A stretch of 64,000 bases of DNA from an uncultured delta proteobacterium (GCA_963736855.1 CAVTQK010000021.1:448001-512000); one strand, 5' to 3'; numbered from the stretch's first letter, positions 18,231 through 64,000 are shown. The notes: a model not told the origin generated them from the letters alone. Numbers and translations: made by a program.

Positions 18231-18241
18231 GCGCCCTCCTT

Positions 18242-43014: not shown

Positions 43015-43167
43015 CATGGCATCGTAAAAACTCAATATTGGGATGGCAAAGTAAAAAGCTTCAGATGCAAGGCGAGCAAATCCTGAGGAATGAGGCGTAC
43101 TTATGGGTACGCCGCAATGACGAAGGATGCAGCGCAACGCAGTAGATGGACTTTTTACGAAGCCATC
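43015..43167. mobile_element. 153 bp MITE-like repeat, copy 2
   Basis: Reverse orientation to copy 1; about 9 differences from copy 3; flanks aggact / aagact; 4 bp after the permease stop. Confidence 0.85.
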
Positions 43168-43216
43168 AAGACTCATGGACACAGCGCATCGATGAGAAGA
43201 GTGCCCGATGATTCAT

Positions 43217-46440: not shown

Positions 46441-46938
46441 CTAAACGATACGCAAAGAGGTCAGCGGTACCATCCCCTGTTTCTTTTCCTTTAAAGTTGA
46501 ATTCTTCAGACCTTCGATCAGCGAAGCGAGAACGGCCTGCTGCTTTTCGTCATCGAATTTGAATCTTAAACCGACACCTTCCGATGTGATTCTGACGACT
46601 TCGGATAGAATCTTGAACGGGTAGACTTCGTGGGGAAAATTGATCCGCAAGAATAGCTCTTCCCCCACCTGAAAAGGCCTCCTGGAAATCATGAAAACAC
46701 CGCTGACACTGATGTCCTGAAGATAATCGGTGAAGGCCCGGCTGACATCTGCATAATCCACGGCAAGGGTATATCGTTTTCTTTCATTACTCCGCCCCTG
46801 ATCCTTTTCCCGGCGCGATGGATCCTTCTCGATCTCTTTGAGAAGTCCCAAGCGCTCTTCAGGCGTCATCTGCTGAATGAGTCTCATAAGGCGGCCTAAA
46901 ACGATATACTGATTTTTTTGAGCATTACCGTATTTCAA
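46441..46938 (-). CDS. PilZ-domain protein (c-di-GMP receptor candidate)
   Basis: RSNER (RxxxR) and DISVSG (DxSxxG) motifs, EVVR..GVGLRF. Start uncertain (TTG at 46938). Confidence 0.8.
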   Translation of the reverse strand: MKYGNAQKNQYIVLGRLMRLIQQMTPEERLGLLKEIEKDPSRREKDQGRSNERKRYTLAVDYADVSRAFTDYLQDISVSGVFMISRRPFQVGEELFLRINFPHEVYPFKILSEVVRITSEGVGLRFKFDDEKQQAVLASLIEGLKNSTLKEKKQGMVPLTSLRIV

Positions 46939-47403
46939 GATCCACCCCCTATGAAAAAGCCCGATAAAAAACCCCTCTTTTTTCATATTTCAACAGATTG
47001 GAAAAGTCAATGACCATTTTTTGATCGTTCTGACAATCGATTATAAACCGATTAACAAGGTGAAATATCGGGATTTCGAGGTTCAAGCGTCAAACTTTGC
47101 TTTGAATCGAGTATCTGTTTGGTTCGCGAGGACAACGCCAAACCTCCTGACCGATTTGTTGAAAAAGGGATCTCCTCCTATCAGACTATGTAAACGGTGT
47201 AAAGCCTTGGAATTTTCTTTTTTTGTGTTTATATTATTGAGATTAAATTAATGGGGTATTCATGGGCGATATCGATAAGGCTTATCCGTTTCGATGTTAA
47301 CTGAGTTTCGGGCCGCTTTTGAATTACCTGAAAATCAACTGCCAAACTTTACACGGAACATGGGTTTTCCGAAAACAAGAGTTACCCGTTAAGGTAACAG
47401 TGG

Positions 47404-50400
47404 ATGCAAACTGATCAAAATTCCGAAAGGATAAAACCCCCCCGAAAGATCCCTCGTTGGATCCTTTGGATCGTATCGGGCCTTTTGATCGGTATCGTCC
47501 TTATCGGCGCGGTCATTTTCTTTATCATCCCCTATGTGGCATCCACTTCCCATTTTCGGGAATTGATCGAATCCCGCGCGTCCAGGATGCTGCATCGAAG
47601 CGTTTCTATTGAGTCGATCGACTTCGGATGGAAAAAAGGCCTTCGGGTGGAGTCGATTCAGATCTCAGACGATCCTAAGCTTCACGAGACACCGATGGGG
47701 TCTATCGGCCTTTTAAAGGTCATCGTCGATTTCCCGAAACTGGTTAAAAGCGGCCGGTTGGCATGCGATATCTTCCTTGATGCCGTAGCGGTTCATATCA
47801 TTCGGGGAAAAGATGGAAAAACCAACCTGCAGCAGTTTTTAGCCGGCTTGTCTGCTCCGAAAGAAAGCCGACCGGCCGCTGCGGATGAAAAAAAAGGGTC
47901 CTATGCCATTCCTGTGACCGACTTTGACGCGCTATTAATTATCCGTCATATGAATATCCTTTATGAAGATCGGATTCAAAACCAAACAGCCGGTCTATAC
48001 GACGCGTCCTTGGACATCCATGTTCCATCGCTTATTGCCCAACCTCTTTCCATGAAAGTATCCGCCGAAGTCCGATCCCAGGGAAAGCCTCTCTCCCCTT
48101 TGAATGCCTTTCTGAAAATCCAGGACCTTTTCGATGAATCCGCAAATATTCAGCCCGACCGGATGTCCATCGACATGGAACTTTCAGCCCCGGGGGTTCA
48201 GATGACCCTAAAAGGTAACTTATCTCAAAAAAATTTGGCCGGTACAGGATATGCGGATCTTGAAAAGGTTCAGCCCGTTCTTTTTTCCGTGTTGCCGGAA
48301 CAATTGCTTCCGACGGTGAAAACCGGCCGATTCGAGTTCACCGCGACAGCGACCCAGCTCGATGATTCCCGCGCCGCCTTTGACACGCGCATCCGGCTCA
48401 AAGGGATCGAAATCCAGGCATTCTCCGATAAAGAATCGCCGGCGGGTCCCCTTTCACTGGACCTGAGTCAAAAAGGCACCATCAACATTCCAAAGGGGGA
48501 CCTGATCATCGAAACAGGAGGACTTTCCTTGAATTCCAGCCGGATGGAATGGCATGGAGAAGTGAACGGTCTTTCAACCTCCAGTCCCGACATGCGATTC
48601 AACATGGGTCCGTCGAAATTTAATCTTTACGAATTGTTGACTGCGGCCGAATCTTTTTTGCAAACCTCTTTTCCTTTCAAGCTCCTGGACCCATCTTCAC
48701 CATTGCTTGAAATCCATGGAATGGAAATTTCAGGGCATCCCCTTCAGGGTCGGCTTTTTATCGATATCCGCGGGATATCCGGTTCGATTAGGCGGTTTCG
48801 GGTTCCGTTTCAGGAAGACACGGCCTTTGCCGATGTCGGCAAGTTGGCGATATCTCTTCCTCAGTTAAGAGGAAGCCTCGCAGACTTTGTCCCGGCTGAA
48901 ATCCTTGCTAATGGATCGCTGACCGTCGCGGATCTCAACCTACATGGACATAGCGGTTTGAAAATCGATTCTTTGACAATCCCCGCATTCCGACTGGAAA
49001 CCCGAGGGCTTCGAGTCGACAAGCGTGCCCCTTTTGGATTTACCCTCCCCTTCTCCTTTACCACCTCCCTTGAGGCGAATGGAATTCAGGGTCCGGATCT
49101 CGAACACGCTCACCTGAATTTGTTATCCTTCCAGATTCAAGGAAACCTCGGATCCAATCCTTTTGCAGAGGCTGCTCTGAAAGGGTTTCGACTGCATGTG
49201 CCTGACTTCAAATGGCGGCATGAAGCACTCGGAACGCTTCGTGGCAATGTCTTAATGGAGGCAGAGGCGCCTCATATCCGTATCCAAGGACTGAATCCCC
49301 TTAAAGGCGATGTCGAGCGGTTTCATTTGAGGCTTCTCGTCGATAAAGGAATTGAGGCAACGCTTAATGCCGATGTTCTCGATATGGGGCGCCAATATTT
49401 TAAAACCGATACAAAGGTTGCGATGGATCTGGGATTTCTGGATTCGATATTGCCGGCTTTTTTTGATGACCGGCATCGGTTTTCTGGCAAGGCCCAGGTA
49501 ACCTGCAACCTGTCCGGCCATATTCCGCCGTCTTTCACGTTGTCGTCACTGTCGTCATCGCCGATGGAATGGATTCTCGAACCCAAATCGTCCGTCATCG
49601 AATCAGCAGGGCTTTCCTTGAATTTTTCCCGTGTGGGCGGATCCTGGCCGATTAACGCAGGGACTGTGTTGGAGGTCAAAAGCATAACGACCCCAACACC
49701 TGTGGCATATGCGTTCGATGGGAAAAACGCTTCCGGAACCCTCAAAGGGGATATTCAAATCGAAGGAATCCGGTCCTCCGTGCTCCCCGTTCCGGACGCG
49801 TCACAGAAGCCTTCTCCAGTCTCCATTTACCTGGCCGTCACCGGGGACCACAACCGGCTCAGTTCGACTTCACTTTCAGCCTCGCTGGATATCCAACCCC
49901 TGGGCATCAAAGGGGAAACCTCCTTTTCCGTCGAGGGAATCGACGCTCTTCTCAAGTCATCCAAAGTCGGAAATCCCTCGGGGTGGTCCCAATTCTTAAG
50001 CGGCAAAGCCAGGATCACGGCGGATTTGCCCGAAACCGGAAAAATTTTTCTGGATCCAAAAACAATACTTCAGGGAGGATTTAAAGCAGGAGCTGAAATC
50101 GAATCAAACGCAGATCAAGGGATGCGCGTGAAGATGTGGGCAGACACAAAGAATTTTGATATCGAAAAAGAGAAAACTCTTTCCATCAAAAACCTCAACA
50201 CAGCCTTGTCTTTTGAAAAACGGTATCGGCCCATGCATCAGATGCATCCGGAAAAGGCGATGACGGATCGCCTCTCCGATTTGGTGATCCAGGATCGCAC
50301 TTTCCGGCAAACGGATTCGTTTGAACCCGATATGTTCGGCACGCCGGCTGGTGGATTACAGTCCCGGCTGAACCCAAAACCGTCAATCGATCTCGGGCCT

Positions 50401-51078
50401 GCGCGATTGTTCCTTTCACCCCACGTAGTCCCGATTCGCCACGCCGCATTGGACCTCAATTTCAACGACGGCCTCCCTCAGATTCGACGCTTGGAAGCCC
50501 ATCTTCTTGAAGGGGCGATCATGGGCTCGGCAATGGTATCCCGAGAAGACGATGATTTGAATTTCGGGGCACGCCTGCTTTTTTCCGACATCGACTTAAA
50601 AAAAATGCTCGAAAGAGAAAAACAAACCCCCGGGGAGGAGGACTCAACCATCGGGGGGCAACTGGAAATCGCGTTTCCTCTGGTATCTTCCCTGCGTCAA
50701 CTGATTGAAAATCTCCAGCTCAGTCTCCAGTTCAACCATATCGGTTCCCGCGCATTCGGACGAGTGCTCTATCTTTTGGATCCCTATGAAAGCAATGAGA
50801 CCATTGCCTCCCAGCGGAAACTCCTGCACAGCGGAGTGCCCCGCTGGATCGATGTCAACGTATCAAACGGGATCCTCTCCCTGGATGGGGAAGTCATCGT
50901 CAAAGGCGTTCCCATCAAGATCCCGCATCTGGAGCGATTGAACCTTGCCGCTGTTTCCGGTTTGGAGACCTATGAACCGTATCTTTCATCCTTGAATACA
51001 TGGGTTCCTATTCTTAAAATCGTATCGGATTCATCCTCGCCGTTCGGCTGGATGAAAAAAATTAAAACAAAGAGGTGA
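47404..51078 (+). CDS. AsmA-like / YdbH-like inner-membrane-anchored periplasmic beta-rich bridge protein (1224 aa)
   Basis: Single N-terminal TM; AsmA-type start (IESRASRMLHRSVSIESIDF..GLRVESIQI; IIRGKDGKTNL); long amphipathic beta-strand character; followed by a DUF1318-like gene. Confidence 0.7.
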   Translation: MQTDQNSERIKPPRKIPRWILWIVSGLLIGIVLIGAVIFFIIPYVASTSHFRELIESRASRMLHRSVSIESIDFGWKKGLRVESIQISDDPKLHETPMGSIGLLKVIVDFPKLVKSGRLACDIFLDAVAVHIIRGKDGKTNLQQFLAGLSAPKESRPAAADEKKGSYAIPVTDFDALLIIRHMNILYEDRIQNQTAGLYDASLDIHVPSLIAQPLSMKVSAEVRSQGKPLSPLNAFLKIQDLFDESANIQPDRMSIDMELSAPGVQMTLKGNLSQKNLAGTGYADLEKVQPVLFSVLPEQLLPTVKTGRFEFTATATQLDDSRAAFDTRIRLKGIEIQAFSDKESPAGPLSLDLSQKGTINIPKGDLIIETGGLSLNSSRMEWHGEVNGLSTSSPDMRFNMGPSKFNLYELLTAAESFLQTSFPFKLLDPSSPLLEIHGMEISGHPLQGRLFIDIRGISGSIRRFRVPFQEDTAFADVGKLAISLPQLRGSLADFVPAEILANGSLTVADLNLHGHSGLKIDSLTIPAFRLETRGLRVDKRAPFGFTLPFSFTTSLEANGIQGPDLEHAHLNLLSFQIQGNLGSNPFAEAALKGFRLHVPDFKWRHEALGTLRGNVLMEAEAPHIRIQGLNPLKGDVERFHLRLLVDKGIEATLNADVLDMGRQYFKTDTKVAMDLGFLDSILPAFFDDRHRFSGKAQVTCNLSGHIPPSFTLSSLSSSPMEWILEPKSSVIESAGLSLNFSRVGGSWPINAGTVLEVKSITTPTPVAYAFDGKNASGTLKGDIQIEGIRSSVLPVPDASQKPSPVSIYLAVTGDHNRLSSTSLSASLDIQPLGIKGETSFSVEGIDALLKSSKVGNPSGWSQFLSGKARITADLPETGKIFLDPKTILQGGFKAGAEIESNADQGMRVKMWADTKNFDIEKEKTLSIKNLNTALSFEKRYRPMHQMHPEKAMTDRLSDLVIQDRTFRQTDSFEPDMFGTPAGGLQSRLNPKPSIDLGPARLFLSPHVVPIRHAALDLNFNDGLPQIRRLEAHLLEGAIMGSAMVSREDDDLNFGARLLFSDIDLKKMLEREKQTPGEEDSTIGGQLEIAFPLVSSLRQLIENLQLSLQFNHIGSRAFGRVLYLLDPYESNETIASQRKLLHSGVPRWIDVNVSNGILSLDGEVIVKGVPIKIPHLERLNLAAVSGLETYEPYLSSLNTWVPILKIVSDSSSPFGWMKKIKTKR

Positions 51079-51080
51079 GC

Positions 51081-51662
51081 ATGAAATCCTTTTGGATTAT
51101 CCCGGTGTTTCTTTTTGTCGGATGCACGCTGGCTCAGGTGAATGTGGAGGTTTTAAGCGAACGAACCGCACTGGAAAACCAGATCCTGGGCACCTACAAC
51201 GCTTTGGACAATGAAATGCTTCTGCTGGCTTCCGTGAGGGCCGTGGATGCCACCGGTGCTTTTCAGGATACGCCTCCGAAAAGCCGGGAACAGCAGGATG
51301 CGGTCACCGCCCTGCAGGTTTTGGCGTTTCATGCGGACGATCTTACGGCATTTAAAAAGCTGCAGTGGGTGGGTGAAAACAACCAGGGGCTCCTGAGCGC
51401 TTTTCCTATGCAAAAAAAACGTGTTCCGGAGGACCTGGGAGCCTTTGCCGAGCGGTATTCCCAGAAGGAACTTGACTCAGTGGTCTCTCAGATCAACACC
51501 GCCCGTGAAACGCTTATGCGCCGAGTTATCGACCTGAACGAGAATCTCACCGAAGCCGATTGGCCCAGCGTCCGTGCGATCTTCGGTAAGCTCAACGCGG
51601 ATAACGCCCTTCCGGGAGAAAAGATCCAGGACGAGAACGGAACATGGAGAATCAAATCATGA
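51081..51662 (+). CDS. lipoprotein with DUF1318/YdbL-like domain
   Basis: Lipobox FVGC; VGENNQGLL, VSQINTARE and PGEKIQDENGTW resemble YdbL/DUF1318 motifs. Confidence 0.7.
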   Translation: MKSFWIIPVFLFVGCTLAQVNVEVLSERTALENQILGTYNALDNEMLLLASVRAVDATGAFQDTPPKSREQQDAVTALQVLAFHADDLTAFKKLQWVGENNQGLLSAFPMQKKRVPEDLGAFAERYSQKELDSVVSQINTARETLMRRVIDLNENLTEADWPSVRAIFGKLNADNALPGEKIQDENGTWRIKS

Positions 51663-54600
51663 ACTCGGTTAATGCCCTCCGCAAATATTGCTCTTGTCTC
51701 GGTGTCGCACTGGCTGTCCTTTTATGGAGTCGAGGGACCCTGGGGACACAAACCGAGCCTTTTTCGACCAATCAGCCCATACAGATCACTGCAGAGGCGG
51801 ATCCGGTGTTGTCATTTTCAGTATCTTCGGATGGAAAAAAGATTGCATTTGTTTCGAAAAAAAAGCGGTTTCCCGATCTATGGCTCCGAAGCATAGATCC
51901 GGCTGCCCACTTTTCCATGCGCCAGCTTACCGACACTCCGGCTTTGGAATCCGATCCGGCCTTCTCCGAAAACGGCCGCTACATCACTTTCGTTAGCACG
52001 CAAGATGACGCCAAAGGTGATATCTTTGTCATCGACTTAAATCAAAAAACCCCGGCACCGGTCCGGATCACGGGCAAGGAGACCGAAGACGGCGCACCGA
52101 GTTTCGGTCCGGGTGAAACTTTGTTTTTTCATCGCAAGGGCCCCGAGATGCGGGACTATGAACTGGTAGTTGTAAGCATCGGTGCATATGTCCGGGGAAC
52201 GAACGAAAAACAGAAGCCCGTCGTGCTTCCCACACAAGGAGACGCTGCTTTACCGTCCGTTTCTCCAGATGGTCTGGAGGTCGCTTTTGTCAGCACCCGG
52301 AACACCGATTCCTCGGATATTTTCGTCATGAACCTGAAGACCCGGGCGCTCCGGCAGTTGACCACCGGCCTCTTCAGAAACCTTTTCCCCCGATGGTCCT
52401 TGGACGGCCGTTACATCCTTTTTTCGCGATGGTCATGGAATACCAACGGTGACGAGACTGTCGACGAACGGGATCATGCCGTCCTGTTTCGCGTCCCTGC
52501 AAGCGGCGGAGATCCATATCCGCTGACTTCGGCACGCTTTTCATCGATCCGCCCTGCTCCGGCTGAAAACGGAATCTATTTTCTCTCGGATTCAAAGGGG
52601 ATCCCCAACTGCCTACGTATCCCATCGGATGGACAGATTCCCCGGATGGAAAATCCGGAAACACAGCTTGAATTGGCCCGCAACATGTCCCTGAAGCTTC
52701 CCCGTGATCCATATCTTTCGCTCCTGGCTTACCACAAAGTTCTCGAAACGTATTCCCATGTTCCGGCTATTGCAGTTCAAGCCCTCTATTCGATCGGGCT
52801 GACAAGCCTGGAAGAAAAGATGCCGATTCATGCCATACAGGCCTTCGAAAAGATACTGAGCAGATATCCTGACCAGGAGCCCGAGGCCTCTTTAGCGCGG
52901 ATTCAACAAGTTCTCTTAAAAGCTGAAACGGCACTTCAGAGATCCAAAAGCCCCCAAATCCGCATGCAGATCGTTGAAAATGCAAACCGGGAACTGGATC
53001 ATATAGCTGAGGGCAAGGCACTGGATATCCGCCTTTTTTCAGACATCGAAAGAGCCCGACTTCTGAGTCGCACCGAAAGCTCGAGCGCAAACTTGTTGCA
53101 GGCGATCCGCATGCTGGACATGGTCATCGCCGAACCTTCCGCTCAATCCGAACGGGTGGTGGAAGCCATGGTTCTCAAGGGAGATATTTACCGTAAAATC
53201 GGAAATTACGAAGCCGTCTATCCGGTATATCTCGCCGTCATCCAGCGATTTCCCGATGTTCCCGTATGGGCAGACGCCGCCCTGGAACGCATGCTCGATC
53301 TCATCCTCTCTCAAAAAGGGTCCACTCTGCCTGAGGACCGTATCCAACTGCTGAAATCCCTTTCCGATCAGCATCGAACTGATACGCAGAAGCTGGCTAT
53401 GGGCGCCCTCAACCGGGTCGGAGACATCCTTTATGCCGCCGGTGAATGGTCCAAGGCCAAGGCGGCCTATCGCCAGGTGATAGATCAATTCCCGGTTCGC
53501 ACCACCCAGACCGCGGCCGCACGGTTCGCGCTGGCTGAAATCCTGTATCAGGAACAACGGTTTCGAGAAGCACTGGATCTGTATGAAAACGAGATCCACC
53601 TGAGAGAAAAAGAAGATCGTATCCGAAAATTGGCCAGAGCAGGCTTCATCCAAAAATCGATCGACGCCGCCGAATATTTTTTCGATCTCGGGGAAATCGA
53701 CGCCGCCCGGAGTCTTTTTAAGGAGATCATCGATTTCGACGGAAGCTTTGTCGAGGCCCATCGGGGATATATCAAGTGCGCCGCCGCCCAGATGGACATG
53801 GATAAGGTTATTTTAACCTACCGAACCCAGACGATACAAGCCCCTGCGGATCCAATCGCAACATACGCTCTTGGCCTTGGCCTCTCGTATCGGGAGGACA
53901 AAAAAAGCCTCAAGGAAGCCCGAGGGCTCCTCGAGCGGGCGATTCTTCTCAACGGCCAGATCAGCCATTTCCACCGAACTCTGGGGTATGTCCTGGAAGT
54001 CCTCGAAACGGTGTATGGTGAAAAAGGGGGGCTGGAAGGTGCGCTGGAATCATACCAAAAGGCGTTTTTCCTGACCGATCCGGAGGGCGACCCGAACAGC
54101 CACGCCGAACTCAACCTCAATTTGGGAAATGTTTACTTCCTCCTGGGCCAATACGCCAAGGCGTTTCATCATTACGACAAGCGCCTGGCTTCGAAAAAAT
54201 CGATTCCCAGCCTCAAGGCCGCTATTTTATTTTACAAGAGACTGGGAACGGCTGCATTCCAGATTCGCAAAATGGAGGAGACCATCAACGCCTTTTCCGA
54301 GGCCGTCCGACGGATCGATTCCGGGATCGACACCCAAGACCCTTCGACCTATCTGAACAGAGACCACCGGTGCGTCATGGATCGGATCGTGAGTCCTGCC
54401 TTGCGCATCCGGTCCCTGGAAAAAGAGGCTTCAAGGATCGCCGAAGCCCAGGCTGACGCGAACCGTGCTCTCTCCGATATTCAGGCCAGGCGGCAGCAGC
54501 CGCCCAGTCCCGCCTGGAAAGAATACCGCGAAAAGATCCAGCAGCAAATTAAGCTCCAGGAAACGCTGAATCAGAAGGCCCTGTCCCTGGCCAGGACCTC

Positions 54601-57600
54601 TATGAAGTCCGGTCTGCACAGCCAGGCAGATTGGAATGGCTTCAAGGGCACCCTGTCCCTGATGCTTTCAAAAGCCAGAGAAGCTGTCTTGCTTCCGGAA
54701 CAACTCATCGAATTGAAGGTCGAGATGTTGGACAGGCTCGGTCTGGCCTATCAGGAAGCCGGCAGATACCCGGAATCCATCCAATCCTTTGAGCAGGCCT
54801 TTGCTTTGAATGAGAAGCTCGGTTTTAAGAAAAATCTTGCCCTAAACCTGAGATCCATCGCATTCAACCGATATCTTCTGGCGGAAAGACAATCCGGCGA
54901 GGCACGCATCCGGACCCTTCAACTGGCATCCAAAGAGTTTGCTCGTGTCATCGGACTGGTGGATGCCTACGGTGTTCCATCACCTGCCTCGGAATCCGCG
55001 GATGCCTTGATCCGCATCGATGTCCAAACGGCGCTGGATGAGCCTGGCGCAACCCAAAGCGGAAAGGGGTTTTCAAAGACCCAGGAAAAGCGATTGGCGG
55101 AAGCGTTCATGAGCAGAATCTCCATTGAACTGGGAGAAATTGAAACCGCCAGTGAGAGCATGAACAGCCAGACGGCCTCTTATGCAGAAGGGCAAGCGGT
55201 ATCCGATGCAGATGCTTACGGGGTGGCCCTCCTGTTCCATCGGGCCGGTCACCTGGCTGCCTCCCAAAAGGATTGGAAGAAAGCCTACGATAATTTCCTG
55301 CGTTCCGGGGAACTGACCCTGCGTGCCGACATTCCCCTGGGCTCCTATTATAACGCCGTCAATCTGTCTAAAGCGGTCACCCAGGTTCAACCTGATGATC
55401 CCGATAGACGTCGAATGGCCTCAGCCCTGGAAACCTTCGACGCCAAAACACTCAGTCTTCTAACCCGGAATTCTACCGCGGCAACCCCGAAGCTTTTGGC
55501 AGGGTATCACAACGCCATGGGCGTCTACCTGGTTTCGATCCCGGCAAGCCCGAAAAAAGACATCCGGGAAACCATTGAAAAATCCCGACGGTTCCAACGC
55601 GCCATGCTGCATTTTTCCAGGGGGATCCGGATACTGGAGGAACCTAACGTTAAAACCCTTAACCGGGAAGAAGCGTCGCTGCTTTCCACTCTACACCTGA
55701 ATCTGGGCCGAGCAGCCCTTGAACTCAAAGAAGATTCGGCGGCAGCCGACCATTTTCAAAAGGCCCTTAATCTGGCTGAAAGCTCCATCCTGCCTGATAT
55801 CCAATGGCGTACCCTGATCGCTCTCGGACGTCACGAAGAAGCACTCAAGGTCCTGGAATCGGTGACTGCCTTGCGGGCCGGTTGTACCAAAGGCGAAATC
55901 CTGGATGGATTTTTTAGCTCCGTAAGAACCCTCATTGAAAGGCAAGAAACGGAAAGCGCTTTGAACCTTTTGGAAAAGGCGGCGGAATTGGAGCGATACC
56001 ATCGACTGGCTCCGTTGATCCTTAGATTTTCCCATCATGAAAAGCGCTTTTTCATCGAGGCCCTTTCACGGCTGGATCGAATTGATGCATTGCAAGTACA
56101 CCTTTCAGGTGCCGATCCTTTCCGGAAAAAGGACTTGGAATCGGAATTGACCCTTGAAAAAACCCGACTGGCCGACCAGATGGGCGAAAACAATCAAAAC
56201 CTTCCGGATTTCATCCGCCTGATTCCAGATGATGAATCTCGAATATCGGCGATTCGTTTGGTGGGGCTTTCCGCAATTGCCGAATCGATGGCCGATGAGG
56301 CGGTCCGAAACCCAGCCGATGCGGATTTTCGTAAAAAATACACTGAAGCGGTGGACCGATATAAAGCGATCTTCAAAAAGACGCTCAGCCGCCGCTCACC
56401 GGATATGCCGTCCAATCCCCTGGTGCTGTTCGGCCCCGAATCGTATGAGGCCATCGATATTATGGAAACCCTACCGGAAGGTGGCCGGTTTGTCCGCATC
56501 TTCAAGACCTCCCGGGCCTCCGACCCCGTCATTTCATTCATCCTCAAGAAGGATCAGCTTTCAGGCAGCCTCCATGGATCTCTGGAAACTGCACTGAAAA
56601 CCGTGCAGTCGCCCGATCCATCCTCAACTTATCTTGCTTTCGATTACCCGGATGAACTCCCGGTAAACGACCCCATCCTTGAAAGGGGCTATAATCTCGT
56701 TTTAAGCGCGGCCCATTTCATGCGCTCTTTTCATCATAAAAAATTGTTTAAAAGAATCGTGGTCCGCATCCCTTCCCCTGCTTCTAGAAAGGAAGAGACC
56801 TCCCTATCCTCCCCTGATCTCTTACCGTCCCTTTCGGGGAAAGATCCCTCGGGGTTTCATGTCCTGGTGGTGGACACTCCGGTATTTTTGGCTCAGCAGG
56901 TCCCGACAAGGCCCGGGGCGTTTTCCACTCCGTTTGCCGCCGTGGATCTGAAAAACGGGGAACGTTTTCCCCTTTTGCACATATTGAATCGACTCGGCCA
57001 TGCTTCCATCGCACTCCTGGAAAAAGCATCGCCTGAGGATGCCTTTTGGATCGGGCATTTGTTCTCCATCTATGGATGTCCGACACTGGTCCTTCCTGCT
57101 CAATCAGGCTCCGATGATCGGTTTGCCGACGCGTTTCTTAAAGCCTTCCGCACCCATACCGCCGGCGAATCCCTGAAATTGGCCCGTTCGGAGGTTGTCG
57201 GCGCCGGGAAATGGATGCTCGTCGGTTTCCCCGGTATGACTCTGGAGGAATCCAAAGCTTTTGCCCGATCCCATTTCGAATCGTACATCACCCGCGCAAA
57301 ACGCGCCTTTGATCGCAAGCAATTCGGCGAAGCCTTGATCCTTTTTGAAAACGCCATCGATATCGCCTCTGAAACCGATGTGTTCCGATCTCATCTTTTA
57401 GACCTCTACCCTTATGCCCGCGAGAGCGCCTATTTGGCCGGGGATCGAAATAAGGCTCTGGATTTTTCCCAGCGCTTGGTCAAGATTCTGGAAACGGAGC
57501 AACCGGCCTCTAAAGCCCATGCCGAGGCCCTATTAAGGCTCGGGCTTGTGCAGGCCCATTTGGAAATGTACGCTCCGGCCACTGAAACGATGAACCAGGC

Positions 57601-60121
57601 CTTGAAAATCTATCAGGCCCTTCATTTATCTCCCCAACAGGCGGAAACGCTTACAGAAATGGCTTGGGTAGCCGAACAGACTACGGATTATGAGACAGCC
57701 CTGACTTATTTTGAATCCTCGGTTTCGCTGACAAAAGATTCGGATCCCCGGTGGCGTTTGGGTGACCGGTTCCACAGCATCGGCCGTATCTTTGATTTGC
57801 GTTTGAGTCAGTATGCCAAAGCCATTACCAACTATCAGAAGGCAGCCTCCCTCTATCGTCAAGGGGAGCAAAGTTCCGAATCCACGGCACGAATCGCGCA
57901 GACTCTATTGGATGTGGGTCGATGCTATCGGCTCATGGGAAATCTTTCCGAGGCCGAAAAGCACTACGAACAGGCCTTGAAATTGTTATCCTCTGAGCCG
58001 GCCCAGGATACGCTGCGGTCCAAGATCCTCATCGAGCAGGCTAACAATGCCTGGTATCAGGCCCGATATGAACCGGCTTTTCGCTTACAGCAAAAGGCTT
58101 GGGCTATCGCCCTAGAACAGGGTCTCTTGCCCATGCAGGTCATCGCCCTCAACACCTCCGGACCGTTGTGGTGGGCACTCGGGGACAACGAAAAGGCTTT
58201 AGCGGAACTGAATCAGGCCCTTGAGATCGCAAAACGCTTACCCCATCGGGAAGATGAGGTCGCTACCACCCTGAACAACATCGGGATGATCCTCCGGGAA
58301 ACCGGACGGTTCCCGGAAGCACTGGATGCTTTCGAAAAGGCGCTGTCCATCGATAAGCGTCTTAGATCCCGTTGGGCCATGGCATACGACTACCGGCATA
58401 TCGGGGTGACCCACCTGAAGATGGGCCTTCCTCAAAAAGCCATCCCCTTATTGACCACGGCTCTCAATGAAGCCCGTGCCATCGGAAACCGCATCCACGA
58501 GGCAAAAGCCCTCTTAGACCTGGCCGACGCCCATTTGGCCGCCAACAATCCGTCGGATGCCGGTCGTATGTATCAGGAATCGCTTGCCCTATCCGATTCC
58601 CTTGCCATCCAGGAGATTCAATGGCGCGCCCTGTACGGACTGGCACGCATCAAGGAAAAGGCACAACCGGATGAGGCCATACGGCTTCTGAAAGAGGCGG
58701 TAAAGATCATCGAATCCATCCGGTCCAACATCCGGATCAGCCGGCTCAAGGACGGGTTCTTGTCCAACAAGTTAATGGTTTACGAAATCCTCTGCCGACT
58801 CCTGGCCGACTCCGGTAATCCGGTGGAAGCCTTCGAGATGGCTGAGCGATCCCGTTCGAGAAACTTCATCGATCTTTTGGGAAGCCAGTCTTTCTCCCTG
58901 GATCCTGCCGTGGATCGACGCCTTTATGATCGATATCATGCACTCAAAGAACGGATCGAAACCATTAAACAACAGATAATCCAGGATACTGATGCCGAAG
59001 AACGTAAAAGGCAGGAGGCTCTCCTGAAAAAAGCGACATCCGACCTTGAAACAGTGATGATTGAGATTCAGGCATCCAACCCCAGACTTTCCTCGCTGGT
59101 CGCCGTCGAACCCCTTCGAGCGACGGAACTTCAGCAGATGATAGAACCGGGAGTCGCCCTTCTCTCCTACTATATATTGGAAAATGAGCTTTTCTGCTGG
59201 CGTATCCTTCCCCAGGAAATTCGCCTTTTTCGTCAAAAAATCAACCGAAAAGAACTGGAAGAAACCCTTCTGGACTTTCGGCGACGCATCCAAAATCTGG
59301 AGCCGTTCGAAAAGCCGTCCCATGAACTTTACGACATCCTGGTTAAACCTGTTCTTTCCGGCCTGGAGCATATCAAACATCTGGGTATTGTCCCCCATGG
59401 ACATCTTCATTATCTTTCCTTCGCCACCTTATCTGATGGAACGGATTTTCTCATCGACCACTTCCCCATCTTTTATCTTCCCTCTGCCTCCGTCCTGAAA
59501 TATACGAAGGAAAAGCGCATTTCGGGAAAAAACCTCGATGTCCTGGCTATCGGAAACCCGGATTTGGGGAACCTCAACCTGGATTTGCCCTTTTCGGAGC
59601 ATGAAGTCCATTCCATCCAGTGGAACTTCCCGAAAATCACGATCCTGACAAAGGAAAGGGCCACGGAGAAATGGGTTGTTGACAATATCGATCGCTTTGG
59701 AATAATCCATCTGGCATCACACGGCGAGTTTGATCCCGTCAATCCGCTTCTTTCCGCAATCAAACTGTCTAAGGAAGGGGAAAGTGATGGAAACCTGGAG
59801 GCTGCCGAAATCTTCGGACTGAAACTTTCGGCGGATCTCGTGGTCTTAAGCGCCTGCCAGACCGGACTCGGAAAGATCACGGCAGGCGACGATGTGATCG
59901 GGCTCAACCGGGCCTTTCTTTACGCAGGCACCCATGCCATCATCTCCAGCTTGTGGAGAGTCAGTGATATCTCAACGGCCATGCTGATCAAGGCATTCTA
60001 TCGTGAATATGTTGATAAAAACAAAGCAGAAAGCCTTCGCCTGGCTGCCTTGCACGTCAAGAACCGCTACCCCCATCCGGGATACTGGGGAGCCTTTACC
60101 CTGGTCGGAGATTACGAATAA
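51659..60121 (+). CDS. giant exported TolB-like propeller / TPR / CHAT (caspase-like) protein, ~2820 aa
   Basis: Signal-peptide-like N-terminus; PD40-type repeats (SSDGKKIAFVS, PAFSENGRYITFVS, PSVSPDGLEVAFVS); many TPRs; C-terminal CHAT with HLASHG (His codon 59720) and LSACQTG (Cys codon 59855), SLWRV, WGAF. ATGA overlap with the lipoprotein gene. Confidence 0.88.
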   Translation: MNSVNALRKYCSCLGVALAVLLWSRGTLGTQTEPFSTNQPIQITAEADPVLSFSVSSDGKKIAFVSKKKRFPDLWLRSIDPAAHFSMRQLTDTPALESDPAFSENGRYITFVSTQDDAKGDIFVIDLNQKTPAPVRITGKETEDGAPSFGPGETLFFHRKGPEMRDYELVVVSIGAYVRGTNEKQKPVVLPTQGDAALPSVSPDGLEVAFVSTRNTDSSDIFVMNLKTRALRQLTTGLFRNLFPRWSLDGRYILFSRWSWNTNGDETVDERDHAVLFRVPASGGDPYPLTSARFSSIRPAPAENGIYFLSDSKGIPNCLRIPSDGQIPRMENPETQLELARNMSLKLPRDPYLSLLAYHKVLETYSHVPAIAVQALYSIGLTSLEEKMPIHAIQAFEKILSRYPDQEPEASLARIQQVLLKAETALQRSKSPQIRMQIVENANRELDHIAEGKALDIRLFSDIERARLLSRTESSSANLLQAIRMLDMVIAEPSAQSERVVEAMVLKGDIYRKIGNYEAVYPVYLAVIQRFPDVPVWADAALERMLDLILSQKGSTLPEDRIQLLKSLSDQHRTDTQKLAMGALNRVGDILYAAGEWSKAKAAYRQVIDQFPVRTTQTAAARFALAEILYQEQRFREALDLYENEIHLREKEDRIRKLARAGFIQKSIDAAEYFFDLGEIDAARSLFKEIIDFDGSFVEAHRGYIKCAAAQMDMDKVILTYRTQTIQAPADPIATYALGLGLSYREDKKSLKEARGLLERAILLNGQISHFHRTLGYVLEVLETVYGEKGGLEGALESYQKAFFLTDPEGDPNSHAELNLNLGNVYFLLGQYAKAFHHYDKRLASKKSIPSLKAAILFYKRLGTAAFQIRKMEETINAFSEAVRRIDSGIDTQDPSTYLNRDHRCVMDRIVSPALRIRSLEKEASRIAEAQADANRALSDIQARRQQPPSPAWKEYREKIQQQIKLQETLNQKALSLARTSMKSGLHSQADWNGFKGTLSLMLSKAREAVLLPEQLIELKVEMLDRLGLAYQEAGRYPESIQSFEQAFALNEKLGFKKNLALNLRSIAFNRYLLAERQSGEARIRTLQLASKEFARVIGLVDAYGVPSPASESADALIRIDVQTALDEPGATQSGKGFSKTQEKRLAEAFMSRISIELGEIETASESMNSQTASYAEGQAVSDADAYGVALLFHRAGHLAASQKDWKKAYDNFLRSGELTLRADIPLGSYYNAVNLSKAVTQVQPDDPDRRRMASALETFDAKTLSLLTRNSTAATPKLLAGYHNAMGVYLVSIPASPKKDIRETIEKSRRFQRAMLHFSRGIRILEEPNVKTLNREEASLLSTLHLNLGRAALELKEDSAAADHFQKALNLAESSILPDIQWRTLIALGRHEEALKVLESVTALRAGCTKGEILDGFFSSVRTLIERQETESALNLLEKAAELERYHRLAPLILRFSHHEKRFFIEALSRLDRIDALQVHLSGADPFRKKDLESELTLEKTRLADQMGENNQNLPDFIRLIPDDESRISAIRLVGLSAIAESMADEAVRNPADADFRKKYTEAVDRYKAIFKKTLSRRSPDMPSNPLVLFGPESYEAIDIMETLPEGGRFVRIFKTSRASDPVISFILKKDQLSGSLHGSLETALKTVQSPDPSSTYLAFDYPDELPVNDPILERGYNLVLSAAHFMRSFHHKKLFKRIVVRIPSPASRKEETSLSSPDLLPSLSGKDPSGFHVLVVDTPVFLAQQVPTRPGAFSTPFAAVDLKNGERFPLLHILNRLGHASIALLEKASPEDAFWIGHLFSIYGCPTLVLPAQSGSDDRFADAFLKAFRTHTAGESLKLARSEVVGAGKWMLVGFPGMTLEESKAFARSHFESYITRAKRAFDRKQFGEALILFENAIDIASETDVFRSHLLDLYPYARESAYLAGDRNKALDFSQRLVKILETEQPASKAHAEALLRLGLVQAHLEMYAPATETMNQALKIYQALHLSPQQAETLTEMAWVAEQTTDYETALTYFESSVSLTKDSDPRWRLGDRFHSIGRIFDLRLSQYAKAITNYQKAASLYRQGEQSSESTARIAQTLLDVGRCYRLMGNLSEAEKHYEQALKLLSSEPAQDTLRSKILIEQANNAWYQARYEPAFRLQQKAWAIALEQGLLPMQVIALNTSGPLWWALGDNEKALAELNQALEIAKRLPHREDEVATTLNNIGMILRETGRFPEALDAFEKALSIDKRLRSRWAMAYDYRHIGVTHLKMGLPQKAIPLLTTALNEARAIGNRIHEAKALLDLADAHLAANNPSDAGRMYQESLALSDSLAIQEIQWRALYGLARIKEKAQPDEAIRLLKEAVKIIESIRSNIRISRLKDGFLSNKLMVYEILCRLLADSGNPVEAFEMAERSRSRNFIDLLGSQSFSLDPAVDRRLYDRYHALKERIETIKQQIIQDTDAEERKRQEALLKKATSDLETVMIEIQASNPRLSSLVAVEPLRATELQQMIEPGVALLSYYILENELFCWRILPQEIRLFRQKINRKELEETLLDFRRRIQNLEPFEKPSHELYDILVKPVLSGLEHIKHLGIVPHGHLHYLSFATLSDGTDFLIDHFPIFYLPSASVLKYTKEKRISGKNLDVLAIGNPDLGNLNLDLPFSEHEVHSIQWNFPKITILTKERATEKWVVDNIDRFGIIHLASHGEFDPVNPLLSAIKLSKEGESDGNLEAAEIFGLKLSADLVVLSACQTGLGKITAGDDVIGLNRAFLYAGTHAIISSLWRVSDISTAMLIKAFYREYVDKNKAESLRLAALHVKNRYPHPGYWGAFTLVGDYE

Positions 60122-60126
60122 CATTT

Positions 60127-60279
60127 GATGAAATCGTAAAAACTCAAGATTAGGATGGCAAAGTAAAAAGCTTCAGATGCAAGGCGCGCAAATCCTGAGG
60201 AATGAGGCGTACATATGGGTACGCCGCAATGACGAAGGATGCAGTGCAACGCAGCAGATGGACTTTTTACGAAGCCATC
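60127..60279. mobile_element. 153 bp MITE-like repeat, copy 3
   Basis: About 4 differences from copy 1 (reverse complement); flanked by direct repeat acattt; just after the CHAT gene stop. Confidence 0.85.
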
Positions 60280-60297
60280 ACATTTAAAGGAACGGAT

Positions 60298-60825
60298 ATG
60301 TTGTTACGACGGGTCATCATCACGATTTTTCTTTCAATGATACTGGCCGGAGCTCACCTCAGCCACTCGGCCGAACGGGTCTGGGTCTCTTCTTTCGACG
60401 CCAAACTCAAGGCCGACAAAACCGCATCATCTCAAACCCTCGCCGTCCTGACGGTGGGAGCCGAACTGACCGTAAACAGCGAGGATGAGCGATGGTATCT
60501 TGTCACCGCTCAAGACGGGAAAAAGGGGTGGATCTATCGAGGCAAAGTCTCTTCAGAGCCTCCACAGCCTTCCGGCGAAAAAACCGAAGGCGATTCGGTG
60601 GGAAAGCTCCTGACAGGGCTTACCGGCAGCCGGATCGGATCCGGTGAAGCCGATACCTCGAGAAGCATGCGCATGCTCTCTGTGGAAAAAAAGAAAAAAA
60701 AGGACGGGTCTCAACCCGATCAGAATTACGAGGAAGCCCTTGAATCGGTTCTGTCGCGCCGGATTCCAGACGTTCGTGTCGATCAATTCCTGGAAGCCGC
60801 CAAAATCGGTGAATATGCGCCATAA
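60298..60825 (+). CDS. exported bacterial SH3-domain protein
   Basis: Signal peptide ending SHSA; AKLKAD..LTVGAELTV..WYLVTAQDGKKGWIY. Start moved out of the MITE to ATG 60298 after AAAGGA. Confidence 0.75.
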   Translation: MLLRRVIITIFLSMILAGAHLSHSAERVWVSSFDAKLKADKTASSQTLAVLTVGAELTVNSEDERWYLVTAQDGKKGWIYRGKVSSEPPQPSGEKTEGDSVGKLLTGLTGSRIGSGEADTSRSMRMLSVEKKKKKDGSQPDQNYEEALESVLSRRIPDVRVDQFLEAAKIGEYAP

Positions 60826-61787
60826 TGGAAGGATTTTTCATGTTTAAATCAGGCATCACCCAGACGGGTTTTAAAACAATCTCCAGAAAACGGCGCACCT
60901 TAGTCAAAATATTGGGAATGGCGCCGCTGATAGTGGCCCAACCGGCCATGGCCATTGACTTTTTAAAACTTCTGGAGCCCAAGAAGGATTCAACCGGCAA
61001 GGAAGGTCCTACAGACCTTGAAAAGGCGCTTCAGATCCTTCAGGGGGCCACCGACATTATCGGAAGCAGCGTGGAATTGGACTACGAATCCGAAATGATC
61101 ATCGGGAAAAGCGTTGCCCTGGAAGGATTCAAACGATACGGGCTTCCCGTGAAAGAAGATTCCCTGCAGAACTATGTCAATCTGGTCGGACAGGCTGTCG
61201 CCCGCAATTTCAAACCCCAGGATAGAACCTATTTCTTTGTCGCCGTTCAAAGCGAAGTGTTCAACGCCTTCTCCTGTCCCGGAGGAATCATCTTCATCAC
61301 CTCCACCCTGATCCGAAATCTTCGGGATGAATCCCAGTTGGCGGGAGTCCTGGCCCATGAGGTGGCCCATGTGAATCTCAAACACGCCCTTCAATCCATC
61401 CGCAGGGCCAAGTTTTTCGAAGGAGTCGGAAAAATCACCGTGGCCACAACTAAAGTGGACAAAAAGGAACAGTACCAGAACATGATTAACGACCTTCAGA
61501 CAGTCCTGTTTGACAAGGGGCTCGATCAGAACATGGAGTACGAAGCGGACCGATACGGAATGGAGATCGCCTATCGAACCGGGTATCAGCCGGCCGGCTT
61601 TATCGGGGTCCTGGAGATGTTGAAACAAAACGAAGCCGGCGCAGTTAAAAAGGGTTCCTGGTTTTCCACCCACCCGCCTCTTTCCCAGCGGATCCAACGA
61701 TGTCAGGTAAAGTTTCAGGATTATCCGGATGCCGGTTCCATGGCAACGGTGGCCCATCGTTTCCTGGAGTATCGGAATCGATTTTAA
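60825..61787 (+). CDS. M48-family zinc metalloprotease (possibly Tat-exported)
   Basis: NAFSCPGG, LAHEVAHV (HExxH), EYEAD, STHP; RRTLVK..AMA signal. TAATG coupling to the SH3 gene. Confidence 0.88.
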   Translation: MEGFFMFKSGITQTGFKTISRKRRTLVKILGMAPLIVAQPAMAIDFLKLLEPKKDSTGKEGPTDLEKALQILQGATDIIGSSVELDYESEMIIGKSVALEGFKRYGLPVKEDSLQNYVNLVGQAVARNFKPQDRTYFFVAVQSEVFNAFSCPGGIIFITSTLIRNLRDESQLAGVLAHEVAHVNLKHALQSIRRAKFFEGVGKITVATTKVDKKEQYQNMINDLQTVLFDKGLDQNMEYEADRYGMEIAYRTGYQPAGFIGVLEMLKQNEAGAVKKGSWFSTHPPLSQRIQRCQVKFQDYPDAGSMATVAHRFLEYRNRF

Positions 61788-61807
61788 ACTCTCAGAAAAT
61801 ACCTCCG

Positions 61808-62932
61808 ATGAACGCTGATACCCGAAAGATGCTTTATCGCACCCGGATCCGGCGCCTTCAAAAGGCGATGAAAAAAGAAAACATCGATACCCTGATGGTC
61901 TCAATCCAGGAAAACCGGCGGTATATCAGCGGATTCACCGGCGAGGACACCCAGTTTGACGAATCGGCCGGCGCTCTTCTTATCACCGAGAATCGCCTGG
62001 TTCTTGCCACCGATTCCCGGTACGAAACCCAGGCCCGATCCGAAGCCCCCCTTTTCGAAGTCTTTTGTTACCGGGAGGGATTGCCAAAATCACTCCCGGA
62101 GATCCTGAAATCCTTCAAAACCGAAAGACTCGGATTTGAAAGCGTGAGGCTGTCTGTCCAGGAACTGCACAAGATCGAGGATCAGCTGAAAAAGGAAAAA
62201 ATCCGAGCGGTATTGGTCCCTGTCGCGGACCTGGTGGAAAAACAACGTGAAATCAAGTCCGCTGCAGAAATTGCGGCGATCCAAAGGGCTCTCAGGCTTG
62301 CAGAAGAGGCATTTCAGCGCACCCTTCCGATTCTCAAACCGGGAATCACTGAAAAGGAGGCGGCTTGGGGTCTGGAAAAAGAGATGCGGGAAGCCGGAGC
62401 CGAAGGCGTGTCGTTTCCCGTCATCGTAGCCTTCGGGGAAAACAGCGCCCTTCCCCATGCCGTGCCGGGAGGCCGGAGCCTCAAACCCGGCGAACCCATT
62501 CTTTTCGACTGGGGAGCCCGCCTTGACGGCTATTGCTCCGATATCTCCAGAAGCTTTTGCATCGGAAAACCGAATGCGTTTTTTAAAAAGGTGTATCAGG
62601 CGGCACGCGATGCCCAGGAAAAAGCCGTCGAGGCGATCCGACCCGGCGCAAATACCAAGGACATCGATCACATCGCCCGATCCCTCATCAACCGGCGAAA
62701 ATTCAAGGGTTGTTTCGGACACGGCCTCGGGCACGGAGTCGGCCTTGCCATCCATGAAGCCCCGAGACTCGGCCCCATCAAGGACGATACGCTGTTGCCG
62801 GGTATGGTTTTTACCGTGGAACCGGGGATCTACATCCCTGAATGGGGCGGTATCCGCCTGGAAAACATGGTCGTCGTTAAAAAGGACCATGCCCAAGTGC
62901 TCAATCGGCTGCCCACCGATATTGAATTGTAA
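61808..62932 (+). CDS. Xaa-Pro aminopeptidase (M24B)
   Basis: [55 protein letters not shown]. Confidence 0.92.
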
Positions 62933-63033: not shown

Positions 63034-63490
63034 GTGGAGCGGTCTCCACCCGGCGTTTTTCCTTGGCAGCAACCTCTTCCTCCAGCAGATGATACAGAAA
63101 GGCCCGTCGCCCATGCCCCGCCTCTGATTGAGACACCAACATATGATGACCCCGTTGCACCTTCCACAGAGGATTACGTCGCCGACCCGGTTTATCCCAT
63201 GGATTCTTATTTCTGAAAAATCCGTCCGGAGTTGACCTGCCCTGCCTGTGCGATGCACCTGTCTGCGTCGCGAACGCGACAGGCAGGCGCAGACAGGCGG
63301 CCTATGCCCGAACCAGCCGGGAAAATGGCCTCTTGCAGATAATATTCGTATTGACAGCGGATTTCCCTTCAGTTAATCGAGAATTTACACGCCACGTCAA
63401 ATGTGTGTTCCCATATCTTGGGATGCAGACGATGGTAAAGCACAATTCATGCTCGTGCTTAATCCGTCCGCAAAAAAGCGACTTCTTATC
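63034..63490 (+). mobile_element. probable IS91-family remnant (transposase C-terminal tail plus oriIS-like end)
   Basis: Peptide RPVAHAPP..YDD..EDYVADPVYPMDSYF* resembles, from memory, the tail of deltaproteobacterial IS91 transposases. AAAAAAGCGACTTCTTATC (~63472-63490) resembles oriIS ends. No catalytic core is present. Confidence 0.45.
63241..63297. repeat. nested REP-like palindromes
   Basis: Outer cctgcctgtgcgatgca|cgcagacagg is interrupted by an inverted related unit cctgtctgcgtcgcgaacgcgacaggcagg (63258-63287). Confidence 0.7.
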
Positions 63491-63565: not shown

Positions 63566-64000
63566 ATGCCGAACCGACATACCGTGAGCCAGGGCGAATG
63601 CATCTCGTCCATCGCCGCTCGTTACGGCTTCTTCCCGGCGACGATCTGGGATAATACGGGTAATTCCCGGCTCAAGGCCGAGAGGGGGGACCCTAACGTG
63701 CTCTACGAGGGTGATGTGGTCGTTATTCCCGATAGGCGGGTTCGCTCGGAACCTTCAGCTACTGAGCAGCGGCACCGGTTTCGCCGCAAAGGCGTCCCGG
63801 AGAGATTGCTGTTTCAAATCCTCGATGAGGAGCAACCCAGGGCCAACCAACCCTACGTCCTGGATGTCGACGGGCGATTGACCCAGGGGACCACGGATGC
63901 CGAGGGGGCGGTCGTGGAATTCATCCCACCCGACGCCCGGAAAGCTCGCCTGCTGATCGGCGAGGAACGACAGGAGTACGTGCTCGACCTTGGATGCCTC
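63566..64000 (+). CDS. LysM-domain protein, 3'-truncated by window (not in ORF track)
   Basis: GGAG RBS; MPNRHTVSQGECISSIAARYGF..IWD..N..LK..R.DPNVLYEGDVVVIP, then GTTDAEG; open to base 64000. Confidence 0.8.
   Translation, partial: MPNRHTVSQGECISSIAARYGFFPATIWDNTGNSRLKAERGDPNVLYEGDVVVIPDRRVRSEPSATEQRHRFRRKGVPERLLFQILDEEQPRANQPYVLDVDGRLTQGTTDAEGAVVEFIPPDARKARLLIGEERQEYVLDLGCL

Follow-up and report, generated by a model that had tools for sequence, protein, structure and literature searches.

The DNA considered here, called the window in the following, is a stretch of 64,000 nucleotides from an uncultured delta proteobacterium (GCA_963736855.1 CAVTQK010000021.1:448001-512000). To judge from the labels of its relatives, the bacterium belongs to the Desulfobacterales. 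Between positions 47404 and 62932 the window sequence contains six open reading frames (ORFs) on the plus strand, all of which lie where the initial annotation had placed them. They code for an AsmA-like protein (the bridge; 47404..51078, 1224 residues), a lipoprotein (51081..51662, 193 residues), a giant protein with two CHAT modules (the giant; 51659..60121, 2820 residues), an SH3b protein (60298..60825, 175 residues), an M48 zinc protease (60825..61787, 320 residues), and an M24 Xaa-Pro peptidase (61808..62932, 374 residues). The six genes had been regarded as one operon; a conserved neighbourhood was found for the first five only. The M24 protein matches PF00557 and PF01321, and its N-terminus is not hydrophobic. 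Its gene follows the M48 gene at 7/7 loci of sufficient length within the family of the window's organism and at 0/5 loci outside this family. Lacking a signal, and being adjacent in its own family only, the peptidase was rejected as a member of the system and is considered a co-oriented neighbour.

The tight junctions described before were confirmed in the sequence. The bridge and lipoprotein genes are separated by a 2-bp gap, the lipoprotein and giant genes overlap in ATGA (51659-51662), the SH3 and M48 genes overlap in TAATG (60823-60827), and a 20-bp gap precedes the peptidase gene. For translation of M48, 60840 is a more probable start than 60825; an ATG at 60840 is preceded by a ribosome-binding sequence and is the start in a 96%-identical relative (L028). 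The TAATG overlap may therefore be unused. The only wide gap had been attributed to the insertion of a mobile element, and a 155-bp miniature inverted-repeat element (60126..60280, not assigned to a strand) indeed lies in the gap 60122-60297 between the giant and SH3 genes. This element, which lies outside the system, has terminal inverted repeats, a 4-bp target duplication, and 83 near-full-length copies in the genome; a further copy is located at 43021-43168 of the window. The element-free site exists in public DNA runs, where a contig of run X1 skips exactly 159 bases and one of run X4 skips 163. Without the element, the stop codon of the giant gene would thus be located 17 bases ahead of the SH3 start.

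Each gene of the system is present in one copy in the host genome, and the G+C content of the system equals that of the remaining window. A promoter scan yielded no excess of promoter-like sites (11 versus 11.6 in shuffled sequences). Terminator-like sites numbered 35, compared to 25.0 +/- 6.1 in shuffled sequences, and none was tied to a junction. The lipoprotein had no match among 72,556 plasmid records.

Predicted products of the five genes

Hydrophobic scans and alignments support the previous claim that each of the first five products carries a membrane anchor, a lipobox or a signal peptide. In the bridge, a scan revealed a single membrane helix (residues 23-42), which anchors an almost all-beta periplasmic body. 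A Pfam search with the N-terminus resulted in matches to DUF748, YhdP and AsmA, all of them below cut-off. Residues 29-1224 were modelled by means of AlphaFold2 on the basis of 59 sequences; the model consists almost exclusively of strands (pLDDT 82.3, pTM 0.57). Its top match in Foldseek is the lipid bridge LPD-3 (probability 0.89, with a TM-score of just 0.13), and the N-terminus of Vps13 was matched with a probability of 0.99. VIA aligned 189 residues to Vps13 with a Z-score of 8.9 and a root-mean-square deviation (rmsd) of 5.2. The protein thus combines two features of the AsmA superfamily, an N-terminal membrane anchor and a chorein/AsmA-type N-terminal domain, and is predicted to be an AsmA-like, inner-membrane-anchored beta-groove protein. 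The groove itself is supported but not proven. Of the earlier assignment to an AsmA/YdbH-type bridge, the first half is supported by the all-beta model and the LPD-3 match. Orthology to YdbH was rejected: PF11739, which E. coli YdbH itself matches with 970 bits, gave no match, and the profile probability was 2%. A search of the host genome for the AsmA family found none and missed even this bridge, and is uninformative on other AsmA-like genes.

The lipoprotein begins with a lipobox, whose Cys15 is invariant in 25/25 sequences. It is followed by a clade-specific strand and helix, a variable linker, and a YdbL (DUF1318) domain comprising residues 85-192, which matches PF07027 above cut-off. The lipoprotein profile was aligned to E. 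coli YdbL with a probability of 96% and to PDB entry 28oj with an E-value of 1.4e-5. The YdbL-type gene that had been postulated is therefore present, albeit fused to a lipoprotein. According to the accessible text of a preprint (bioRxiv 10.64898/2026.03.16.712125), E35, N58, R61 and W104 of E. coli YdbL are required for full function. Their counterparts E99, N139, R142 and W189 are retained in 109-114 of 114 relatives. Membership in the YnbE family was rejected, as there is no PF13617 match and as the profile alignment (probability 29%) covers signal, lipobox and first strand only. We predict that the lipoprotein caps the outer-membrane end of the bridge and has the YdbL regulator fused on.

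The giant is composed of a signal peptide, a TolB-like PD40 propeller, a TPR solenoid, a first CHAT module, a second TPR solenoid, and a C-terminal CHAT domain (59312..60112); PD40, TPR and the C-terminal CHAT domain were detected by Pfam (PF12770, 211.6 bits). At the N-terminus there is a short hydrophobic peak of 11 residues (12-22), which is invisible to a scan of 19 residues; no internal membrane helix was found in the hydrophobic scans. The C-terminal CHAT domain is the most conserved region (73% mean identity), and its dyad His2688-Cys2733 is invariant in 42/42 aligned sequences. The TPR block 561-860 is also strongly conserved (54% identity). These findings agree with the previous description of an exported TPR/propeller CHAT protease, for which activity would reside in the C-terminal module with its intact dyad. 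The possibility that the giant is a full-length TolB was rejected, because similarity is confined to the propeller repeats (TIGR02800, 78.7 of 343 bits).

The first CHAT module was overlooked in the earlier reading. Residues 1340-1900 (55676..57358), which form a TPR-helical-CHAT duplicate, align to the C-terminal module with a probability of 98.6% in a global profile alignment. Local profile alignment left the module undetected (probabilities <3%), and its discovery is owed to the global alignment and to comparison of folds alone. The model of the module (pLDDT 89.2) matches separase (Z 17.3, rmsd 7.2, 322 aligned residues), Csx29 (Z 15.1) and DdvA (Z 14.1, rmsd 4.3, 255 aligned residues). 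No conserved His-Gly or Cys occurs at the aligned positions; to judge from its sequence, the first module is catalytically dead.

A search with a distant relative was used to widen the set of giants, and 108 of the 120 matches listed have both the propeller and the terminal CHAT domain. Among these 108 relatives, the dyad is retained in 107, the exception being a partial record. The internal CHAT module was detected in 96, an N-terminal hydrophobic stretch in 102, and an internal membrane-like stretch in one. As judged by eye, approximately 11 of 67 N-termini contain a lipobox-like Cys; most are plain signal peptides. The source labels of the family include Nitrospinota, Nitrospirota, Planctomycetes and Magnetococcales. 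In the closest relative (L028:10564-19000), the giant is represented by two ORFs of 2414 and 537 residues, and split giants were also seen at several other loci. These splits possibly are assembly or sequencing errors.

The SH3 protein (PF08239, above cut-off) starts with an export signal (hydrophobic residues 1-19); it also has a flexible linker, and its C-terminal tail is conserved. The M48 protein (PF01435, 105.5 bits) possesses an export signal (hydrophobic residues 26-44) and an intact HExxH motif in the form of HEVAH; many of its relatives have a leader of the twin-arginine type. The M48 gene directly follows the SH3 gene at every mapped locus, and the two are fused at 6 loci, where 3/6 copies have no HExxH. 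The comparison of the M48 protein with BepA that had been drawn earlier does not hold: its 320 residues contain no TPR half, and it reaches 79 bits at a cut-off of 570. At 7/10 loci fetched for distant SH3-M48 pairs, the pair is found next to a CHASE2 adenylate cyclase, so that SH3-M48 emerges as a portable pair, which the earlier reading had missed. No publication on the combination of CHASE2, M48 and SH3 was found in the literature searched. The flanking pairs (L144, L145, L148, L149, L150, L152, L153) have a tail motif R/K-G-L/F, and at three of these CHASE2 loci a FadL-like outer-membrane protein adjoins M48. Genome G096 contains a fused, diverged SH3-M48 gene beside the giant (L108:3523-4755) and a separate, well-conserved pair (L140:7430-8837).

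Two of the proteins share a short motif. The lipoprotein contains S-V-R-G-V directly before its variable linker (S51-V-R53-A/G-V55, 51231..51245, plus strand), and the SH3 tail contains S-I-R-G-L after the linker. Arg53 was found in 44/44 aligned orthologues of the lipoprotein and in 105/114 wider relatives, compared to 1/9 lipoproteins from genomes without a giant. The Arg and the Leu of the SH3 motif are invariant in 17/17 sequences. The motif pair ranks second among 25,725 profile window pairs, and 2/50 control chunks match its score. Separase is described as cleaving after Arg (PMC11506125, accessible sections). As a lead, S-V/I-R-G-V/L may be regarded as a putative protease site with the bond after Arg53 as the candidate.

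Linkage of the genes across genomes

In order to examine the neighbourhood of the system, the best 80 of 191 lipoprotein relatives were mapped in a locus scan of GTDB. The bridge gene is located directly upstream of the lipoprotein gene at 71/75 loci of sufficient length, the giant gene directly downstream at 67/77 loci, and an SH3 gene follows the giant at 30/42 loci. The proposed conservation of the neighbourhood was thus verified for these loci. Where the giant is not adjacent, it is encoded elsewhere in the genome in 10/10 cases, and likewise for 2 further loci that are cut or gapped. The same is true for the bridge at 3/4 loci without an adjacent copy and for SH3 in 8/10 genomes. In the cultured Desulfonema magnum, for example, the bridge and lipoprotein genes, the giant gene and the SH3-M48 genes are distributed over three loci. 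The genes stay together in the genome even where the operon is split, a fact that had been overlooked.

Unbiased samples led to a similar picture. Of 61 relatives, 14 carry the lipoprotein clade, and precisely these 14 carry the giant; within the phylum, both occur in an identical set of 8 out of 301 genomes. The bridge, searched with its C-terminus, is present in 6 of the 8 phylum carriers and in 0/293 other genomes; identical numbers were obtained for a strong SH3 orthologue. In two other phyla, the lipoprotein clade was confined to the seed genome (1/20 and 1/101). In 18 further genomes, which possess a distant DUF1318 lipoprotein only, there was no giant match, and none of the 13 that were mapped has an adjoining giant. 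Within the family of the window's organism, the system is retained in 10/11 genomes. For 31 loci, trees of the bridge and the giant were compared: the distance correlation is 0.947, and 21/24 supported splits are common to both. The mean tree distance is 2.69 for the bridge versus 1.70 for the giant. On the strength of these comparisons, bridge, lipoprotein and giant are very probably linked in function.

Models for the function of the system

The system resembles YdbH-YnbE-YdbL of E. coli (PMC11126948; bioRxiv 10.64898/2026.03.16.712125; both as far as accessible) in that an inner-membrane-anchored AsmA-like protein is followed by a lipoprotein and then by a YdbL domain, and in that the functional residues of YdbL are kept. 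In contrast to YdbH, which comprises 879 residues, the bridge has 1224 and is placed outside PF11739. Unlike YnbE and YdbL, the lipoprotein has no PF13617 match and contains YdbL in fused form, and unlike the E. coli bridge, the system is co-inherited with the double-CHAT protein of 2820 residues and the SH3-M48 pair. Of three sequence tests for membership in the E. coli bridge, those for YdbH and YnbE thus gave a negative result and that for YdbL a positive one.

Among the closest known counterparts of the giant is DdvA of Myxococcus xanthus, a membrane-anchored anti-sigma factor whose TPR-CHAT part is located in the periplasm (PMC11506125, accessible sections). Both are extracytoplasmic TPR-CHAT proteins and agree in the His-Cys dyad and the fold. 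However, the giant is devoid of a membrane helix and of a cytoplasmic anti-sigma part, and a sigma factor is not adjacent at the loci inspected; it has in addition a propeller and two CHAT modules and is tied to a lipid-bridge operon. A DdvA-type anti-sigma factor was rejected on the grounds of the missing internal membrane helix and of the missing extracytoplasmic function (ECF) sigma neighbour at these loci. Csx29 of the Craspase and separase share with the giant the order of a helical solenoid and a caspase-fold protease. They differ from it because the giant carries an export signal, has no link to CRISPR, and contains a duplicated CHAT module, the first copy of which appears dead. BepA and LoiP have an M48 domain with HExxH and an export signal in common with the M48 protein, which, in contrast to them, has no TPR half and has an SH3b protein as its partner, in some cases by fusion.

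Two relatives of the bridge match the hypothetical Leptospira family LIC_11026 (NCBIfam NF047499), although far below cut-off (L113, E 4.8e-8; L202, E 1.3e-5). As reported in the available part of PMC8055020, L. borgpetersenii possesses one DUF1318 gene and one CHAT gene, which are not adjacent. Between two strains, a joint shift of 3.2- to 3.4-fold is seen for the DUF1318 gene and the two hypothetical genes that flank it, and one of 4.7-fold for the distant CHAT gene; hundreds of genes differ between these strains. There are no Leptospira proteins among the named matches listed in the homologue searches. One supplementary file of a proteomics study (PMC11887813) contains no DUF1318, CHAT or YdbL term; other tables of this study could hold detections. 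A publication joining bridge, lipoprotein, double-CHAT giant and SH3-M48 was not found in the literature searched, which mostly excluded subscription papers. The same literature yielded no prior link of YdbH/YdbL-type genes with CHAT proteases, in agreement with the statement in the initial annotation.

We propose that the five genes form a unit in which a lipid bridge similar to YdbH-YnbE-YdbL is under the control of its own dedicated, exported, caspase-like protease switch. We assign to this reading a probability of roughly 0.4, and the full mechanism outlined below is rated about as tentatively. According to it, the propeller and the TPR solenoid would dock the giant on the end of the bridge, the dead CHAT module would be a scaffold or substrate holder, and the giant would be off until a signal arrives. 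A cut after Arg53 of the lipoprotein would then free the YdbL domain and switch the assembly state of the bridge. With less confidence, the input may come from the SH3-M48 pair, for which such a part is also plausible next to CHASE2 cyclases at other loci. The SH3 tail, with its S-I-R-G-L, may likewise be cut as a further substrate or may compete as a ligand. The most specific version, in which the giant clamps the bridge and an SH3-M48-triggered cut at S-V-R-G-V frees the YdbL cap and thereby gates lipid flow to the outer membrane, is rather unlikely to be correct in all parts. In E. coli, the bridge is inhibited when free YdbL is in excess, and the free form is a substrate of DegP in vitro, as stated in the accessible text of bioRxiv 10.64898/2026.03.16.712125. 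Since a DegP-type titration is impossible for a fused YdbL, the lipoprotein needs another control, which a cut before the linker would supply. DdvA provides the precedent for a periplasmic TPR-CHAT protein (PMC11506125, accessible sections).

Several observations weigh against this proposal. For the bridge, beta-barrels occupy the top of the VIA ranking (best Z 11.3), ahead of Vps13 and LPD-3 (Z 8.2). TamB is encoded in the host genome, and lipid transport may therefore depend mainly on a route other than this bridge. With respect to the candidate cut site, the shared motif was recognised post hoc, and the specificity of CHAT proteases varies, being Met or Leu in craspases (PMC11506125, accessible sections). 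The form R/K-G-L/F occurs in 10/10 distant SH3 proteins from other neighbourhoods; this weakens the idea that the tail motif is specific for the giant, and the motif may instead belong to the M48 partner. The window's own SH3 protein has a version that has drifted to S-M-R-M-L (60664-60678, plus strand). With respect to linkage, the loci are kin and not independent, such that the tallies overstate it, and agreement of the trees is also expected from shared descent. The wider lipoprotein clade was also mapped in metagenomes, at the best 80 of 438 loci, many of which are short contigs; the giant is beside the lipoprotein at 5/80 and a bridge match is upstream at 8/80. About 30 of these 80 lipoproteins follow a 416-residue gene, which is FabF in both cases tested. 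Finally, searches with the bridge C-terminus gave no match in genomes G118 and G370, and no strong SH3 orthologue was detected in G079, G118, G024 and G359.

Two other explanations are improbable to about the same degree. The first is that the bridge and the lipoprotein serve the giant and guide, anchor or export it, a lipidated form or a fragment to the outer membrane or the surface, where its targets would be outside. The lipobox-like Cys in some giant N-termini points in this direction, as does the report that the AsmA-like GspN aids movement of lipoproteins to the surface in Acinetobacter (PMC12802150, accessible part). The bridge moreover evolves faster than the giant, and TamB is available for routine lipid supply. 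On the other hand, the signal peptide is a plain one in most giants, the five genes have no conserved neighbour for an outer-membrane barrel or for secretion at the loci inspected, the lipoprotein retains the YdbL residues that are tied to bridge function, and a similar pair of bridge and lipoprotein occurs without any giant.

The second of these explanations is envelope surveillance or defence against phages: in the periplasm, the giant would detect invaders or damage, a role that has been proposed for DdvA, and its cleavage of the bridge or of another target would cause growth arrest or an inward signal. Such a role would suit the closest folds, as Csx29 and DdvA are defence or defence-regulating proteins, and also the patchy distribution (8/301, 1/20 and 1/101 genomes) and the CHASE2 adenylate cyclases that are flanked by distant SH3-M48 pairs. 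It is less compatible with a system that is present in single copy, has an ordinary G+C content and housekeeping surroundings, and is retained in almost all genomes of its family. Furthermore, the loci inspected have no conserved neighbour that encodes a sigma factor, a cyclase or a nuclease, nor a conserved cas gene, and the giant has neither a membrane helix nor a cytoplasmic part.

It is still less probable that the giant is mainly a scaffold, or a general periplasmic quality-control protease on the bridge, with cargo or misfolded envelope proteins and not parts of the bridge as substrates. The extent of the propeller and TPR regions (about 2,000 residues), the conservation of the TPR block 561-860, and the wide occurrence of the seemingly dead CHAT module (96/108 relatives) fit this idea, and the M48 relatives BepA and LoiP, with matches under cut-off, are envelope proteases. 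Yet those CHAT proteases that have been characterised are switchable and narrow in their action (PMC11506125, accessible sections), and the clade-specific Arg motif of the lipoprotein would be left unexplained. A purely historical neighbourhood, in which an ordinary bridge operon would have travelled with a mobile SH3-M48 pair and a TPR-CHAT gene unrelated to it, is very improbable: the modules do occur in other contexts (bridge and lipoprotein without giant, SH3-M48 beside cyclases) and the operon is frequently split, but the parts persist after splitting (giant 10/10, bridge 3/4, SH3 8/10) and none was detected alone among the 293 other genomes of the phylum.

The system bears on how AsmA-like bridges, that of E. 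coli included, are switched or matched to demand: its bridge is co-inherited with a single large protease that is probably switchable, and a candidate bond after Arg53 of the 193-residue lipoprotein can be named from the sequences. A genetically linked candidate substrate would open the question of what exported CHAT proteases cut; for DdvA, trigger and target are open according to the accessible text of PMC11506125. If the proposed protease switch is real, it would be the first dedicated one on a bridge of the AsmA/VPS13 family, and the first periplasmic proteolytic relay of its kind, common to sulfate reducers and nitrite oxidisers. Building of the outer membrane would then likely be under dedicated proteolytic control, and SH3-M48 would be a portable periplasmic input module that is also used beside CHASE2 cyclases.

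Further features of the window and related loci

At L179:5409-7276, L185:8731-10570 and approximately 30 metagenome loci, the lipoprotein gene is located between a fabF-like gene and an unannotated gene of 481 residues, and no bridge or giant adjoins. CsgG-TPR, fibronectin-III and DUF4384 genes adjoin the bridge or the lipoprotein at L043:245-5345 and L202:10772-13143.

Upstream of the bridge gene, a contig of one public run (X2) contains approximately 870 extra bases at the intergenic position 47109 of the window. A divergent gene with a PilZ domain (46441-46986) precedes the bridge gene and adjoins a radical-SAM gene and queC. At 39061-40309, a gene of the pyridoxal phosphate-dependent dehydratase family (PF00291) is found in two overlapping frames, which is a probable frameshift. 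A dynamin-family gene of 748 residues (17439-20488) lies directly upstream of a ParA-like ATPase, and a YcaO domain fused to TPRs is encoded at 15660-17417.

A second repeat family is represented at 63034-63490, with 56 blast hits in the genome. It contains an ORF of 60 residues without a Pfam match, which presumably resembles the C-terminus of a transposase. From 63566 to 64000 and beyond, a protein of 209 residues with a weak LysM match is encoded, followed past the end of the window by a 407-residue protein of unknown type and helicase-like pieces.

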